Notes under the pieces: generated by a model
Seen by the model: the letters and a program-made list of their open reading frames with translations, nothing else
What the model was told of the DNA's origin: nothing
Database searches by the model: none
From: Candidatus Saccharimonadales bacterium
GTDB lineage: Bacteria; Patescibacteriota; Saccharimonadia; Saccharimonadales; JBGSXW01
Direction: 5' to 3'
Assembly (NCBI GenBank): GCA_041751215.1
Contig: JBGSXW010000002.1
Span: 3,123-67,122, forward strand
DNA length: 64,000 nt
Made by a program: the position numbers and the translations under genes
Shown: positions 22,553 through 58,047 of the stretch, one piece after another
How positions within the stretch are numbered: position 1 is the stretch's first letter
Layout: each line of letters opens with the position of its first letter

Positions 22553-22688
22553 TTCTTAGCTCCAAATCGGGCAGATATACTTCACCGTCTTTGATGACCA
22601 TGCCTAATGCTTTAAAATTATCTCTGAGCTTAAAAAGATCGTCGAAAAGCGGTTCTAAATTAATACTAGTGAGCTCACCAAAGTAAGC

Positions 22689-22875
22689 CACCCACCTTGC
22701 GTGGGTGTTTTACTTTGGTACGCTCTGCGAGCGTAGAATTCGTAGGGTTCGATAACAACGAGCACGCACAGGAACTACCTCCTAGTTCCGAGCATGCGAG
22801 GAGGTTATACTTCGAGTACTCCCGTAGGGATCACCAATCTAAGGACGCCAGCTTGCTGGTGTTTTTAGATTGGTG
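22689..22875 (+). other. structured intergenic region with two terminator-like hairpins on the + strand
   Basis: cacccac-cttgc-gtgggtg+TTTT (22689-22711). Mutually exclusive hairpins ggaacta..tagttcc and cctcc..ggagg. Nested hairpin caccaatctaa...ttagattggtg (22832-22875) encloses gccag-cttg-ctggt+TTTTT (22847-22866). No + strand gene is nearby. Confidence 0.3.
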
Positions 22876-22890
22876 ACTTTGTGTACGAAT

Positions 22891-27588: not shown

Positions 27589-28328
27589 GTGGCCTCACGC
27601 AATTGGATAGAGCTCAACGCAGCGGCGCAAGCTGCTGGTCGGCACGTCTGTGCTGGCATCGACCTCGACCTGAGCAAGCTGCCGGCTGGACTGGAGACTC
27701 CAGAAGGTCAGCTGTCGGCATGGTGGATCGCACCGGAGTCGACGCCATCACGATCACCCCGTACATGGGGCGGATCAAAGGGCTGCAACCGTTCCTCGAT
27801 CGGGCCGACAAGGGCGCGATCGTGCTCTGCCGGACCAGCAATGCCGGCGGTGCCGAGACGCAGGACATCCCCTGTGTGCCCCTGTTCGATCCCGACACGG
27901 AGCAGTTCTACGCGAGCGAGCGTCACTACGAGCTCGAGAACGGTCACCCGCCCACGGTGCTCATGAACGATGCGATGCGTATGCCGTACTACAAGTACAT
28001 CGCCTACCGTGTGACCAGCGCGTGGAACGCCAACGGCAACTGCGTGATGGTGGTCGGCGCGACGGTTCCGGAGGAGATGGTCGAGATCCGCAAGATCGCC
28101 GGCAACATGCCGTTGCTCATTCCGGGCATCGGCAAGCAAGGCGGCGACCTCAAGTCGGCGGTGCTCTCGGGCATCGACAGCGAGGGTCAGGGCATCATCG
28201 TGAACAACAGCTCCGCGCTGACGTTCGCGTCCGATGGGCCGGACTACGCCGATGCTGCGGCCAAGGTGGCCGAAGGAATGCACAAGGAGATCACGGAGAT
28301 CATCGCCCAGCACCTCGCTGCGGCCTGA
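27589..28328 (+). pseudogene. pyrF: orotidine-5'-phosphate decarboxylase (type 2 pyrF), apparently disrupted
   Basis: A GTG start after aaggagag gives ...HVCAGIDLDLSKLP (the N-terminal substrate-binding motif) in one frame. From ~27720 the homology continues in another frame (GVDAITITPYMG, VLCRTSNAGG, LLIPGIGKQGGD). The ~55-aa segment that should carry DxKxxD is absent. Confidence 0.55.
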
Positions 28329-28345
28329 ACGACCTAGGAGGTCAC

Positions 28346-29041
28346 ATGGGAGCAATCTACGACGCCCTGGTGGAGAATGATGGCATCCACTTGGGTGGCC
28401 ACTTCATCTACACCAGCGGCGTCCACGTCGAGCGCTACCACAACGTGCGCTGGTCGGCCTGCGACAACGACACCATGTCGATGATCGCGTCAGACATGGT
28501 CGACCCGCAGTGGGCTGGTCAAGTCGACGTCGTCTTCGGTCCAGAGACCTTGGGTCGGACTTTCGTGGATCGAGTTGGCCAGGCAGCGTCGCAACAAGGC
28601 GTTACTGGCCTGAAGGTCATGTGGTGCCAGATCGTCAAGCACGATGACGGCACTCGTGAGGTGCGCTTGCCAGACGAAGAGATGTACGGCTTCAGCCGTT
28701 ACCTCAAGCCTGGTGCCAAGGTGTGGATCATCGACGACGTGCTGTCCAAGGGCACGACTTCCCTCTTGGTCCTCAACTTCTTGCGCGCATTCGGCGTTGA
28801 AATCGTCGGTGTTTCGGCTGTGCTTCGGCTCAACCAGACGGTGACGGCGAAAGTGCTGGGTGTCCCTGCGCTGCAATTCCTCGAAGACGTCGTCGGCGTC
28901 GAGATGCTCAGCGAAGCCGAGTGCCAGGAACGCGGCATGTGCTCGCGCAACGAGCCGATCGTGCTCAAGCCCGGTCACGGATTCGAGTACCAGATCGAGC
29001 ACCCCGATTACCCCGGAGGATACGTCGATCTCGATCGATGA
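28346..29041 (+). CDS. type I phosphoribosyltransferase (orotate PRTase-like)
   Basis: ATG after ggaggtcac inside track ORF 28022..29041. PRPP-binding loop KVWIIDDVLSKGTTS, with strong GC3. Confidence 0.7.
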   Translation: MGAIYDALVENDGIHLGGHFIYTSGVHVERYHNVRWSACDNDTMSMIASDMVDPQWAGQVDVVFGPETLGRTFVDRVGQAASQQGVTGLKVMWCQIVKHDDGTREVRLPDEEMYGFSRYLKPGAKVWIIDDVLSKGTTSLLVLNFLRAFGVEIVGVSAVLRLNQTVTAKVLGVPALQFLEDVVGVEMLSEAECQERGMCSRNEPIVLKPGHGFEYQIEHPDYPGGYVDLDR

Positions 29042-29306
29042 CACCTCTTTGTCCTATCCGACCTTGCCGGTCGATACTTTTCCCTTTTGGGATTTGTGTC
29101 GGCCGGCTTTCTCTTTGGCCGCTCTTCAGCGCGAATCAACGTGGCCCAGTCGCCTGGCACAGCCAGTCGTGACGGCCACTCTGCGTCACGTGCTCTGTTG
29201 CTCGCCAGCAGTACTTTCGTGTGTACAACTGAGCTCTGCTACTCGCACCTTCCTTGTGCTTCATCACTGAAGAGACGCCCAAACTAACCGAGGGTTGGCT
29301 ACTAAT

Positions 29307-29520
29307 TGGTTTATTACTACTGCCGCCGCGTCTAGTAAAACCTCTGAACTTGTAAGGACAGAACCTGGCGTGACGAGGACTGTCCGCCAGCTGGCGGACG
29401 GACTCCGCAGTCACCCAAGTTCTGTCTGAAGCAAGTTCATGAGTGTTTTGGTAGTAGCGGGATAGTTTTGGGGCACCTTTTCTAAAAAGGCGCCACTACC
29501 CTCGCCGGGAGCGACAAGCA
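29307..29520. repeat. structured repeat, copy A (inverted relative to copy B)
   Basis: Core 29337-29516 aligns to the reverse complement of 43146-43317. It folds as a long hairpin plus two short hairpins and begins a few nt beyond the response-regulator stop. Confidence 0.7.
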
Positions 29521-29524
29521 AAGA

Positions 29525-29956
29525 CTAACTAGTTGGTCCGGTAGCTGGCCCCTGCGATTGCTCGGGCACTTCCCCGAACTTCTCGATCTGCTTGATCAGC
29601 TCGACTAGTTTGCGCGGTGTAATATCAGCTTTAATCAAATATCCATCGGCTCGCTCTTCGATTGCAGCTCGGGTTTTTTCGTCCTGGTCGAGGTTGGTCG
29701 TAACTACTACCTTGGTGTTTGGTAGTCCTTGTCCATCAACACCGCGGATCTTGTTAAGCACCTCAATACCGGTCATGTCGGGAATCATAAGGTCTAGTAG
29801 AACTAGGTCGTACTTTCCGGTTTGCGCCATTTCCAGACCCTTAGGACCAGTAATCACCTCATCGACTTCATAACCAGCCCGGCGCAGCGCCCGAGCGTAG
29901 AGTTCGCTGATAAAGCGATCATCTTCGATACATAGAATGGTTTTTAATCCAGCCAT
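29525..29956 (-). CDS. single-domain response regulator (CheY-like receiver)
   Basis: 143 aa with ILCIEDD, DLVLLDLMIPDMTG and a YLIK-type lysine region; there is no output domain. Confidence 0.85.
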   Translation of the reverse strand: MAGLKTILCIEDDRFISELYARALRRAGYEVDEVITGPKGLEMAQTGKYDLVLLDLMIPDMTGIEVLNKIRGVDGQGLPNTKVVVTTNLDQDEKTRAAIEERADGYLIKADITPRKLVELIKQIEKFGEVPEQSQGPATGPTS

Positions 29957-43137: not shown

Positions 43138-43140
43138 GAC

Positions 43141-43362
43141 GCTCTTTGTCGCTCCCGCGACGGGGTAATGACACCTTTTCAAAAAGGTGTCCCAAAAACT
43201 TTCACGCTACTACCAAAACACTCATGAACTTATTTCAGACAGAACTTGGGTGACTGCGGAGTCCGTCTGAACAGTCCTCATCACACCAGGCTCTGTCCTC
43301 GCAAGTTCAGAGGTTTTGATAGAGGCGGGGCCTCCGTCTTCTACCGGTAGGAGCAGGAAACC
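43141..43362. repeat. structured repeat, copy B (inverted relative to copy A)
   Basis: It starts 4 nt after the pyrH stop. Core 43146-43317 is the reverse complement of copy A with roughly 85-90 percent identity by eye. Confidence 0.7.
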
Positions 43363-43417
43363 TCCCTCCCCAAATTCAGGAGTTTTAGCTGATGCTTATA
43401 CCAAGAATAGGCTGAAG

Positions 43418-46022: not shown

Positions 46023-46658
46023 CTAGTTTGGCCGACCGTCGCCGCGCTTTATATCGTGGGCGTAGCTGTCGATTATAAAAACGACTGCGCTCAGCCCGTA
46101 AAACAGCCAAAGCGAGCGTAACCAGCCGTTTTGTAAATGCTGGCCTAAAAAGATGCTATGAAAGTAAATAGCTACAAAAGCCGCAATATTAAAGGCTTTA
46201 ACCAGTGGCCAATATCTCTGGACCGCCGACTTTTGTCTAAATCGATCGACAACTTCGTAAAGCAAAAACACACTAATCGCAAAATACGCTAGCAAAACAT
46301 AAAAATGCCGATTCCTGCCGACATAATCTACCGCATCAAAATCATTTATCTGACCCTGGTAAATAAGTAGTCCTGGGTGAAGCAAAATCAATGCCAAAAC
46401 CACAACCCCAGTAAATTGATAGTAAAAGCGGTAATCGATGGCTTCTGGCCACCGTCTTTTAAGGCCGGCTACTAAAAAGTGACTCCACATTAAGCCAAAG
46501 GCCCACAATCCGATTAAAGGAAAGAGCTGCAACATAGTTAGGCTCCCGAACTCCCAGTCGAGTTGATTAGCCCAGTATATAAATGGCGCAATCAGCACAA
46601 AGGCGGAAACAGCCGAGATAACCGATAGAACAGTTCGCTCCTGTGATGATTGAGTCAT
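46023..46658 (-). CDS. integral membrane protein (about 6 TM, conserved His; ferric-reductase/MsrQ-like topology?)
   Basis: 211 aa with regular hydrophobic helices carrying His residues; the function is not assigned. Confidence 0.55.
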   Translation of the reverse strand: MTQSSQERTVLSVISAVSAFVLIAPFIYWANQLDWEFGSLTMLQLFPLIGLWAFGLMWSHFLVAGLKRRWPEAIDYRFYYQFTGVVVLALILLHPGLLIYQGQINDFDAVDYVGRNRHFYVLLAYFAISVFLLYEVVDRFRQKSAVQRYWPLVKAFNIAAFVAIYFHSIFLGQHLQNGWLRSLWLFYGLSAVVFIIDSYAHDIKRGDGRPN

Positions 46659-46700
46659 GCGACAATATTAGCATGTACGTTTTCAAGAAAAGAAAAAAGA

Positions 46701-47090
46701 CAAGAAACACAGTTTATACGCAAGGGGTGGGGGCCGACTGACTAGTCGAACTATTGCCAGTCGGCCCCCAATGCTATTGATTGCTCCAATATTGCATTGC
46801 GATGAAGGCTCGACAGCCCAGAGACGCAGAGTCTCCCACAAGAGGACGCGGGCGGAGTTCGGAAGGGGTTGCGGCCATATCTTGGGCATGGGACGTGCGG
46901 GCTGTCGAGCCTGACTTTTAGAAAACCTTCGCTAACGAGGGCCTTCTATTAGAACTCCCCGATCGGGTGCTCTGCTTGCGAGGCAGATAGGGAGGGAGTG
47001 CATCCGATCGGGGCCGACACAGCGATGAGGTGCAAAACGGCGAACCGTTCCGACGTCGTGGCTGCGCGCGGATTTGAACTGTGTTTCTTG
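46701..47090. other. GC-rich hairpin-rich non-coding element bounded by 14-nt perfect inverted repeats
   Basis: caagaaacacagtt (46701-46714) vs aactgtgtttcttg (47077-47090). Internal perfect stems are gggggccgactg/cagtcggccccc (46729-46740/46758-46769) and ggctcgacagccc/gggctgtcgagcc (46807-46819/46899-46911, apex GGAA). Confidence 0.6.
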
Positions 47091-47202
47091 CCGGTAAGAA
47101 CTTTTAGTCATAAACACGACCAAAGTTCATATATTTAACATTAAAAACATCGATTAGTCAATCAGTTAATTGTCGTTTTTAGACTGTCTGCAGGGGGCTA
47201 AA

Positions 47203-47772
47203 TTAGTAGTCGATGCCCTTGTTGGCTAAAAACTTGTCGTCAAAGTGATGGCGGAGCTTAGCCATATTAGTTGCGATGTCAACTTCGCTCAGCAATTCTT
47301 CTTTAAAATTTCGCCCGGTCATACAAAGGCTCGTCTTTGGGGCCAAATCTTTCATGAGCTTGCGTTGGTCGGCAATTGTTATGAGTCCATCATTTACGGC
47401 ATTGTTAATTTCGTCACAGACCACCAGATCATAGTCGCCGGAGCTAGCGCATTGATAAGCAAAGTCCAGGGTATCTTTAGCAGCCTGCTTGTGTTCGTCT
47501 TCACTAACATCTTTAGCGCTTAGCTCGCCCGCGTTATAAAAGCCCTTGCCGCCCTTATAAAATGTCAGCTTATCCTTAAAAATAGGTTCGATTTGTTTAA
47601 TAAAGTCGTGCTCGCCCACTTTCCAATGCTTAATAAATTGGATGTAAGCAACTCGCCAGTTAGTTCCGAGTGCGCGAGCCATTAAGCCAATTGAAGCGCT
47701 GGTTTTGCCTTTGCCCTCGCCCGTGTAGACGACGATGACGCGGTCTTTAGTATTGTAGTCTTCCATCTTCAT
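47203..47772 (-). CDS. ATP:cob(I)alamin adenosyltransferase (CobA/CobO/BtuR family)
   Basis: 189 aa with VYTGEGKGKTSASIGLMARALG...YIQFIKH. Confidence 0.85.
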   Translation of the reverse strand: MKMEDYNTKDRVIVVYTGEGKGKTSASIGLMARALGTNWRVAYIQFIKHWKVGEHDFIKQIEPIFKDKLTFYKGGKGFYNAGELSAKDVSEDEHKQAAKDTLDFAYQCASSGDYDLVVCDEINNAVNDGLITIADQRKLMKDLAPKTSLCMTGRNFKEELLSEVDIATNMAKLRHHFDDKFLANKGIDY

Positions 47773-57318: not shown

Positions 57319-57450
57319 ACTATTTTAGACAAAAGAAAAAACACGGAAAGCTAGAGATTATAAGAAGGAAGGGATGACCGGGGCGGTCGCCGCGTGAACG
57401 TGAAGTTCAGTTGGCGACCGCCGTCGATCATGCTGGTCTCAGCCGCGTGT

Positions 57451-58047
57451 TCAGCCGATGAGGCCGCCGACCCGCTCGGGTACGAACGGGATCGTCGAAC
57501 CTTCGTCCATGTGCTCGGCGGCGACGGGTTCGTCGACGAAGTGCCCGGGGGTGCCGGTGTAGACGAAGGCGCCCGTTGCTCTGGAGCCGGCGATGCGCTG
57601 GCCGCTGAGCATCAGGAAGTGGTGCGTGATGCTGATGCTGGTCGCAGAGAGCGATGACATGAGCTGATCGGTGCTCAGCGCGTCGTAGAGGCGGTTGGCC
57701 GCTTCCTGCTGCGCTGCGTAGTGGTGTGCGAGCTCCGCGTTCATGTCGCGGAATGAGCGCGAACCCCCTGCTGCGCCGCAATCCTCATGGCAGTGCAGTG
57801 CGATCACCAGCGCGGTGTTGTCGTCGCACTTCTTGCTCCAGAGGTCGCCGAGGTTGGCGATGAAGCCGTTCCTCGCTCTGGAGTTGAGCAGCCCTGAGGC
57901 GCCACCAGCGATCGAGTAGAGGTGGAACCCCTCTTCGTCGTCGTAGGCCTCGAGCAGACTCGGATGGATCCGGATCAGTCGAGGGTCGACACAGCTGATG
58001 CCTGCGGTGAGCATTGCGAGCTTTGGTGGATTTGAGTCCCCCATCAC
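57451..58047 (-). CDS. beta-carbonic-anhydrase-like-motif protein (single-gene GC-rich cassette)
   Basis: 198 aa with strong GC3. SCVDPRL (CxDxR) and ALHCHEDCGAAGG (HxxC) are spaced as in beta-CA-type metal sites. It is followed on its strand by the GC-rich hairpin ggcggtcgcc...ggcgaccgcc. Confidence 0.5.
   Translation of the reverse strand: MMGDSNPPKLAMLTAGISCVDPRLIRIHPSLLEAYDDEEGFHLYSIAGGASGLLNSRARNGFIANLGDLWSKKCDDNTALVIALHCHEDCGAAGGSRSFRDMNAELAHHYAAQQEAANRLYDALSTDQLMSSLSATSISITHHFLMLSGQRIAGSRATGAFVYTGTPGHFVDEPVAAEHMDEGSTIPFVPERVGGLIG

Follow-up and report, generated by a model that had tools for sequence, protein, structure and literature searches.

What occupies the spacer between a btuR-like gene and a membrane-protein gene in a member of the Saccharimonadales, and does it act as RNA or as DNA? 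The window analysed here is a 64-kb stretch of DNA that the proteins neighbouring the spacer assign to the Saccharimonadales, which belong to the candidate phyla radiation (CPR). On its minus strand, an open reading frame (ORF) matching Pfam CobA_CobO_BtuR (47203-47772, E 9e-46) is followed by an ORF for a multi-pass membrane protein of 211 aa, without a Pfam family above threshold (46023-46658), and the gap between them, which a first-pass annotation of this DNA had put at about 540 nt, measures 544 nt. That annotation had pointed to an element of about 390 nt in the gap (46699-47092 when its full closing helix, P1, is included), and had offered three options for it, namely a novel RNA, a divergent housekeeping RNA and a miniature inverted-repeat transposable element (MITE); our results favour the first and speak against the other two. 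Positions 46685-47128 of the minus strand are probably a gene for a structured non-coding RNA (ncRNA) of ~400-440 nt, trans-acting or stand-alone, whose function would depend on its fold. The best reading of the element is that of a new and narrowly distributed RNA family, for which we detected no relation to any described family.

Structure and conservation of the element

Apart from two details (see below), the features that had first drawn attention to this stretch were recovered in our analysis. The repeat finder placed the perfect inverted repeat, 14 nt long, at 46701-46714 / 47077-47090 (16 bp when extended on the minus strand), and also located perfect stems of 13 bp (46728-46740 / 46758-46770) and 14 bp (46806-46819 / 46899-46912). 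Both CCGATCGG palindromes were found (46959-46967 and 47004-47012), paired with one another as a 10-bp helix and contained in a 17-nt repeat pair with 88% complementarity (46957-46973 / 46997-47013). The element is also GC-rich, as had been stated, with a GC fraction of 0.565-0.595 versus 0.48 for the whole window and 0.38-0.46 for the flanks. The minimum free energy (MFE) of the 390 nt was -173.7 kcal/mol for the minus strand (z = -10.0) and -187.7 kcal/mol for the plus strand (z = -8.6), and none of 100 dinucleotide shuffles folded as well as the element. The observed structure is real and far beyond chance.

We identified an orthologous locus in a Logan contig from another sample (L002), belonging to a second Saccharimonadales species, with identical gene order and with the element in the same gap between the btuR-like and the membrane-protein genes, here 518 nt long. 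The deduced products of these two genes share 83% and 71% amino-acid identity, respectively, with those of the window. Conversely, identity at four-fold degenerate sites was only 27% in btuR, 31% in the membrane-protein gene and 35% in the SNase gene, which amounts to saturation; neutral DNA would thus be unalignable between the two species, indicating that conservation of the spacer reflects selection. The spacer nevertheless retains invariant blocks of 10 to 17 nt, which read CCCCGATCGG, CCCGATCGGGGAG.TCTA..AGAAGGC, TTCT.AAA.TC.GGC(T)CGACAGCCC and GGGCTGTCG(A)GCCTTC.TCG.

When folded separately, the window and L002 elements gave the same architecture. A helix-by-helix alignment, checked by script, comprised 84 shared base pairs, of which 57 were unchanged, seven had changed on one side, 19 had changed on both sides with pairing kept and a single one was broken, so that 83 of the 84 were maintained and all helices were kept. 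Independently, RNAalifold on an unguided MAFFT alignment recovered 76 pairs, 18 of them compensatory. P1 illustrates the pattern, because its strands read GGCAAGAAACACAG / CUGUGUUUCUUGUC in the window, compared with GACAAGGAACAUGA / UCAUGUUCCUUGUC in L002, a difference of four compensatory changes. No reading frame was conserved between the two sequences, indicating that the element is non-coding, and a conserved small ORF was rejected because no frame is common to both species.

The compared helices also distinguish the two strands. On the minus strand, the shared helices contained nine G-U pairs and one A-C (a G-U on the plus strand), an excess that places the RNA on the minus strand of the window. 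The consensus energy was -94.6 for the minus strand versus -87.3 for the plus strand, whose consensus fold lost H3 and part of H1 (see below), and the z-score of the L002 element was -10.7 on the strand equivalent to minus versus -6.1 on the other. Purifying selection acts on the fold, which is that of the minus strand. A CsrB-like sponge with GGA loops, which would lie on the plus strand, was rejected because of the same G-U and A-C counts.

Anatomy of the fold and flanking signals

On the minus strand, the fold consists of a leader hairpin, followed by the 16-bp closing helix P1 around a six-way junction, and then by a U-rich tract. The junction bears P1, the hairpins H1, H2 and H3, the branched domain H4, and P6, which encloses H5. 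The leader hairpin H0 (47098..47128) lies 5' of the closing helix, pairing GAACUUU with AAAGUUC in the window and UUAGCUU with AAGCUAG at the same position in L002. The 5' strand of P1 (GGCAAGAAACACAGUU, 47077..47092) contains the 14-nt repeat and pairs with the 3' strand (AACUGUGUUUCUUGUC, 46699..46714); the 14 pairs that are common to L002 show one one-sided change besides the four compensatory ones.

Inside P1, the long hairpin H1 (47014..47071) accumulated three compensatory and two one-sided changes in 10 bp, and its base has two G-U pairs in the window and G-C in L002. The base of hairpin H2 (46957..47013) is formed by the two palindromes (CCCCGAUCGG/CCGAUCGGGG), invariant in both species, and its apical loop is C-rich (CUCCCUCCCU). 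The single-stranded junction J2/3 (46949..46956), with the conserved sequence AGyUCUAw, leads to hairpin H3 (UAGAAGGC.../...GUUUUCUA, 46919..46948), which contains G-U pairs exclusive to the minus strand. It is followed by the junction J3/4 (46913..46918), conserved as AAAkUC (AAAGUC in the window and AAAUUC in L002).

The branched domain H4 (46806..46912) has a 15-bp closing stem (AGGCUCGACAGCCCG / UGGGCUGUCGAGCCU) and two inner hairpins. One base pair of this domain is gone from both strands together in L002, and the inner hairpin at 46821-46835 shows two compensatory changes. This is the region that had been described as a 105-nt hairpin capped by a GGAA tetraloop; we found instead that the 14-bp stem closes a branched domain of 107 nt, and that on the RNA strand the tetranucleotide is a UUCC within an unpaired loop. 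Helix P6 pairs 46798-46803 with 46716-46722 (span 46716..46803), retains a bulged U in both species and shows two compensatory changes in six pairs. It encloses an AU-rich hairpin (46771-46797), present only in the window, together with H5 (46728..46770), a perfect GC-rich hairpin that L002 replaces, in the same place, with a 14-bp perfect hairpin of other sequence, amounting to five compensatory changes. H5 had been likened to a tRNA minihelix and to the 5' end of transfer-messenger RNA (tmRNA), from its GGGGGCC-GACUG...ACC reading. This analogy fails because the resemblance is limited to one genome: stem, loop and tail all differ in L002, where UCC stands in place of ACC after the hairpin.

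Besides the helices, the short junction strands AGyUCUAw, AAAkUC and UC are conserved in sequence. Unpaired positions are poor in G and rich in C, both in the window (C 50, A 35, U 31, G 12) and in L002 (C 53, A 31, U 31, G 7), and motifs of the CCUCC/CUCCC type occur in or beside loops, including CUCCCUCCCU, ACCUCA, CACCUCCU and CCCUCCCU.

Putative transcription signals flank the fold on both sides. A promoter-like block (47133..47161, minus), composed of TTGACy, 17 nt and TTmAAT, with a TG before it, lies ~40 nt upstream of P1 and is conserved between the two species, in a part of the spacer that has otherwise diverged. Directly 3' of P1, the U-rich tract UUUUUUCUUUUCUU (46685..46698, minus; AUUUCUUUCCUU in L002) is a putative 3' end or terminator tail. 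The RNA would thus be transcribed from the promoter-like block and would end at the tract. Additionally, a TGCTArTAT motif precedes the ATG of the membrane-protein gene by 6 nt (46659..46676, minus; TGCTAATAT), with both motif and spacing conserved in L002. Such motifs are found 6-8 nt before starts, as in the SNase gene of locus L093 (6620-6641), where TGATATAAT lies at a similarly short distance from the ATG. This suggests that the membrane-protein gene has its own putative extended -10 promoter and that mRNAs in this group may be leaderless, or nearly so, which in turn points to a separate RNA gene upstream. The database copy of the membrane protein (P0001, from the NCBI assembly) has 170 aa, compared with 211 aa in our ORF; since all 211 residues are conserved in L002, the deposited protein probably begins 41 codons downstream of the true start.

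Known families, further copies and origin

The element did not match any of the 4227 families of Rfam 15. At the gathering score, we obtained only a tRNA-Leu from the whole window and only tRNAs from 17 related loci. Relaxing the search to E<=10 produced one spurious snoRNA match with the isolated window element, in its AT-rich flank, and only miRNA-hairpin and Guanidine-I noise with the L002 element (14-21 bits, far below threshold). The RNase P, tmRNA, signal recognition particle (SRP), 6S and cobalamin families were unmatched at either setting in both species, in agreement with the earlier remark that core motifs of RNase P, tmRNA, SRP and the cobalamin riboswitch could not be found. ARAGORN detected the tRNA-Leu alone in the window, and no tmRNA. 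A cobalamin riboswitch is also at odds with position, because the element is downstream, not upstream, of the btuR-like gene. We found no described ncRNA of this kind in the literature on Saccharibacteria and Patescibacteria. Group I introns inside tRNA genes have been reported in Patescibacteria (PMC13011429). An intron of this type in an undetected tRNA was considered for our element and rejected, as its AT-rich flanks bear no likeness to a tRNA and L002 has not kept the S-element-like AAGAUAUGG.

We then considered whether a highly divergent housekeeping RNA (RNase P, tmRNA, SRP or 6S) could have escaped the Rfam models. Its size of ~390 nt and its paired 5' and 3' ends do resemble RNase P RNA and tmRNA, and diverged RNase P RNAs exist in CPR genomes, where those of 10 out of 35 circular genomes were found only with lowered Infernal thresholds (Lui et al. 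2021, PMC8172020). Nevertheless, the suggested analogy of P1 with the P1 helix of RNase P was unsupported. The architecture does not fit, with H1 and H2 preceding the would-be P3, and manual reading revealed no complementary 3' P4 strand in either species. Likewise, we did not find by manual reading CR-I (GAGGAAAGUCC) or CR-V (ACAGAA..GGCUUA), the consensus strands of the P4 helix of RNase P RNA; J3/4 and the start of H4 (AAAGUCAGGCUC) are only loosely similar to GAAAGUCCGGGCUC, the CR-I of E. coli. The absence of any family match at E<=10 on the isolated stretch of either species, the negative ARAGORN result and the lack of conservation of the tRNA-like features of H5 point in the same direction. 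A housekeeping RNA would also be expected in all relatives, yet the conserved blocks are absent from the genomes of 185,579 species (see below) and the locus is an insertion with respect to the outgroup. Locus L093 contains SmpB, so a normal tmRNA is presumably encoded elsewhere in these bacteria. Together, these results make a divergent housekeeping RNA extremely improbable.

To what extent is the element found elsewhere? We compared two of the conserved blocks, as exact patterns, with one genome each of 185,579 species, obtaining zero and three matches for a chance expectation, by our own estimate, of ~2. The three matches (Treponema, Ferrimonas and Paenibacillus) were in unrelated coding DNA, without partner strand or palindromes. 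We ran an nhmmer profile from the two sequences, and a covariance model limited to the H2-H3-H4 core, over around 80 metagenomic loci containing btuR homologues from other Saccharimonadales (63-73% identity), plus the window. Both yielded only self matches, and 488 kb of related loci contained no further copy. Membrane-protein homologues with ~50% identity (L003, L004 and L005) were not adjoined by such an element. In the nearest syntenic outgroup (L093/L094; btuR 75%), which shares glycosyltransferase, GH42-like and Exo_endo_phos genes with the neighbourhood in the window or L002, btuR and the SNase gene are only 71 nt apart, indicating that the RNA and the membrane-protein gene are an insertion peculiar to the lineage that comprises the window and L002. 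Such a lineage-restricted insertion argues against a universal housekeeping RNA. The content of the btuR-to-SNase spacer varies among lineages, and in L010/L011 it comprises 521 nt of structured sequence (z -5.6 to -7.3) together with an ORF of 118 aa. A structured spacer, here of 503 nt (z about -5.4 to -6.1), also follows btuR in L034/L035. These spacers were rejected as members of the family, since they showed another architecture and no detectable homology.

The joint occurrence of RNA and membrane-protein gene as an insertion relative to the outgroup would also be compatible with a cis-acting element, either a structured 5' leader (riboswitch-like or attenuator) of the membrane-protein gene, or a 3' untranslated region or processing or stability element of the btuR mRNA. 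As a leader, formation of P1 beside the U-rich tract would decide between termination and read-through, and this tract does occur right after P1, 27 nt before the start codon of the membrane-protein gene. Additionally, the element is co-oriented with both flanking genes, and we did not detect a strong terminator between btuR and the element. Conversely, the membrane-protein homologues of L003, L004 and L005 lack it upstream, none of the 80 other btuR loci carries it downstream, and an extended -10-like motif, conserved and at leaderless spacing, belongs to the membrane-protein gene itself. The element, with ~400 nt and six helices, is also far larger than known riboswitch aptamers and has no riboswitch match in Rfam. 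We therefore consider a cis-acting role unlikely.

An element acting purely as DNA was the remaining option. It could have entered the common ancestor as a MITE or other palindromic mobile element, or could represent a structured site in single-stranded DNA, for instance for recombination or replication; in either case it would be devoid of RNA function. In agreement with this, the element ends in perfect inverted repeats of 14 nt and has several long palindromic stems without mismatch, its GC content is high relative to the genome, and the spacer differs among lineages, as with the 71 nt of L093/L094 and the 521 nt plus 118-aa ORF of L010. The terminal inverted repeats of a MITE are indeed present, but they differ between the two species by paired compensatory changes. 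Furthermore, blastn did not reveal a second copy in the 64-kb window nor any similarity in phage and plasmid collections, so that the search for additional copies proposed as a check gave no support to a MITE; the terminal repeat has no other occurrence in the window, even with two mismatches, and three patterns had 0 matches among viral contigs. There was no copy in these collections or in the 488 kb of related loci, no target-site duplication at the ends of the element (flanks ...aaaaaaga|CAAG and CTTG|ccggtaag, without direct repeat), and no transposase or recombinase gene adjoining it. Moreover, an orthologous site kept across saturated divergence with 19 compensatory pairs is not expected of an inert relic, and G-U pairs outnumber A-C mismatches nine to one on one strand. 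We consequently regard a purely DNA-level explanation as very doubtful.

The genome contains another structured 414-nt element, absent from a sister species, that bears on this question. This second large, GC-rich and non-coding element (29111-29524, in the gap 29042-29524) has no Rfam match and no sequence similarity with 46701-47090, and is situated between a gene with a phosphoribosyltransferase domain (28022-29041, plus) and a response-regulator gene (29525-29956, minus). Folding of the whole 483-nt gap gave z-scores of about -8.5 (plus strand) and -8.1 (minus strand); the element includes a near-perfect hairpin of ~95 nt (29345-29439), and on the plus strand G is scarce among its unpaired bases. 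L090, a sister species whose response regulator is 92% identical, lacks the 414 nt and retains only a shared terminator-like hairpin; the response regulator of a third, fragmentary genome of the genus (L089, GCA_964349695.1) is 87% identical. The shared GC-rich hairpin, of 12 bp (GCCGGTCGATAC...GTGTCGGCCGGC, then TTTCTCTTT; 29066-29107, and 1206-1250 in L090), lies between convergent genes. The sister species conserves it, and it has the appearance of a terminator, with a C-interrupted T-tail resembling the tract after P1.

Elsewhere in the window, GC content peaks at 27600-28200 and 57375-57700 (0.64-0.69 versus 0.48 overall). The first peak coincides in part with doubtfully called ORFs just upstream of the second element, and may be foreign DNA. 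Two other non-coding gaps, 43138-43417 and 22553-22890, are also fairly stably folded (-0.35 to -0.39 kcal/mol per nt) and had no Rfam match at the gathering score.

Possible function and comparison with known systems

Several observations weigh against an RNA gene, or limit what can be said of it. The comparison involves two sequences, too few for covariation statistics of the R-scape type, and H0 and H5 were aligned by structure. Raw MFE does not separate the strands, with the plus strand folding as well as the minus. A consensus scan for sigma-70 promoters and terminators called neither the promoter-like block nor the U-tract, so both remain inferences. Perfect stems as long as 13-15 bp are found more typically in DNA palindromes and terminators than in the majority of functional RNAs. 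The C-rich motifs keep their positions only in part between the window and L002, and the G-poor loops could merely reflect selection against misfolding. Finally, absence of the second structured element from the sister species indicates that this genome does gain or lose such elements, which leaves some weight to a mobile-DNA origin, even though selection on the fold is clear for the element studied here.

How might an RNA from this locus work? Its unpaired CCUCC, CUCCC and CACCUCCU motifs resemble the anti-Shine-Dalgarno sequence, and a GGAG-type Shine-Dalgarno precedes the start of 32 of the 62 long ORFs in the window. The C-rich loops could pair with G-rich Shine-Dalgarno regions of mRNAs, in the way known from 6C and RsaE/RoxS small RNAs, or bind a protein. 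If the locus is an RNA gene, a trans-acting regulatory or scaffold RNA operating in this manner is a tentative, and speculative, possibility. A protein-binding scaffold or a catalytic RNA would fit just as well with the size and with the conserved junction of several helices, and large multi-helix RNAs with conserved junctions have usually proved to be ribozymes, ribonucleoprotein scaffolds or global regulators. A bolder proposal, to which we assign a rather low probability, is that the element is the first representative of an undescribed class of large, complexly folded RNAs confined to a Saccharimonadales lineage, forming a six-way-junction ribozyme or the core of a ribonucleoprotein. Should this be true, the reduced genomes of these episymbionts would carry more undescribed large RNAs, and the element at 29111-29524 may be one of them.

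Genomes of the candidate phyla radiation are ~1 Mb and have little spare DNA, and to our knowledge almost nothing has been described about their non-coding RNAs. For now, the significance of the element is limited, as it is known from two metagenome-derived species and predicted from sequence. Nevertheless, an RNA of ~400 nt and six helices, kept across saturated neutral divergence, would represent a concrete target for metatranscriptomics and structure probing.

The element differs in diverse ways from the systems that it recalls. It resembles bacterial type A RNase P RNA in length, in the pairing of its 5' and 3' ends as a closing helix, and in having a hairpin followed by an A-rich junction (AAAGUC); unlike RNase P RNA (RF00010/RF00011), it lacks a P4 pseudoknot partner, CR-I, CR-V and a covariance-model match, has two extra hairpins before the would-be P3, and its would-be specificity domain would comprise only 77 nt. 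Unlike tmRNA (RF00023, and permuted forms), it has no tRNA-like domain detectable by ARAGORN or Rfam, and unlike the cobalamin riboswitch (RF00174, and variants), it is downstream of the btuR-like gene and unmatched in Rfam. With MITEs and palindromic intergenic elements it has in common the terminal inverted repeats, a length of a few hundred nucleotides, an intergenic position and the abundance of palindromes. Conversely, it is single copy, without target-site duplication and orthologous in two species, its repeats covary instead of being identical, and its pairing is strand-asymmetric through G-U pairs.

Two groups of RNAs provide further parallels. Small RNAs with C-rich loops include the actinobacterial 6C RNA (RF01066), RsaE/RoxS from Staphylococcus and Bacillus, and the RNAIII hairpins with UCCC loops. 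The element resembles them in its stable GC-rich hairpins and in its C-rich, G-poor loops with CCUCC/UCCC-type motifs, but it is 4-5 times larger, is built around a six-way junction with conserved strands, lacks an Rfam match and conserves the positions of its C-rich motifs only partly; the likeness thus concerns a possible working mode and not family membership. Relative to OLE, GOLLD, ROOL, HEARO and raiA, there is no match in sequence or structure, the host belongs to the Saccharimonadales, only two species are known to contain the element, and it is not associated with phage, tRNA or the typical partner genes of those RNAs. What it shares with them is its nature as a long, multi-helix and conserved intergenic RNA candidate, brought to light by comparative sequence analysis alone.

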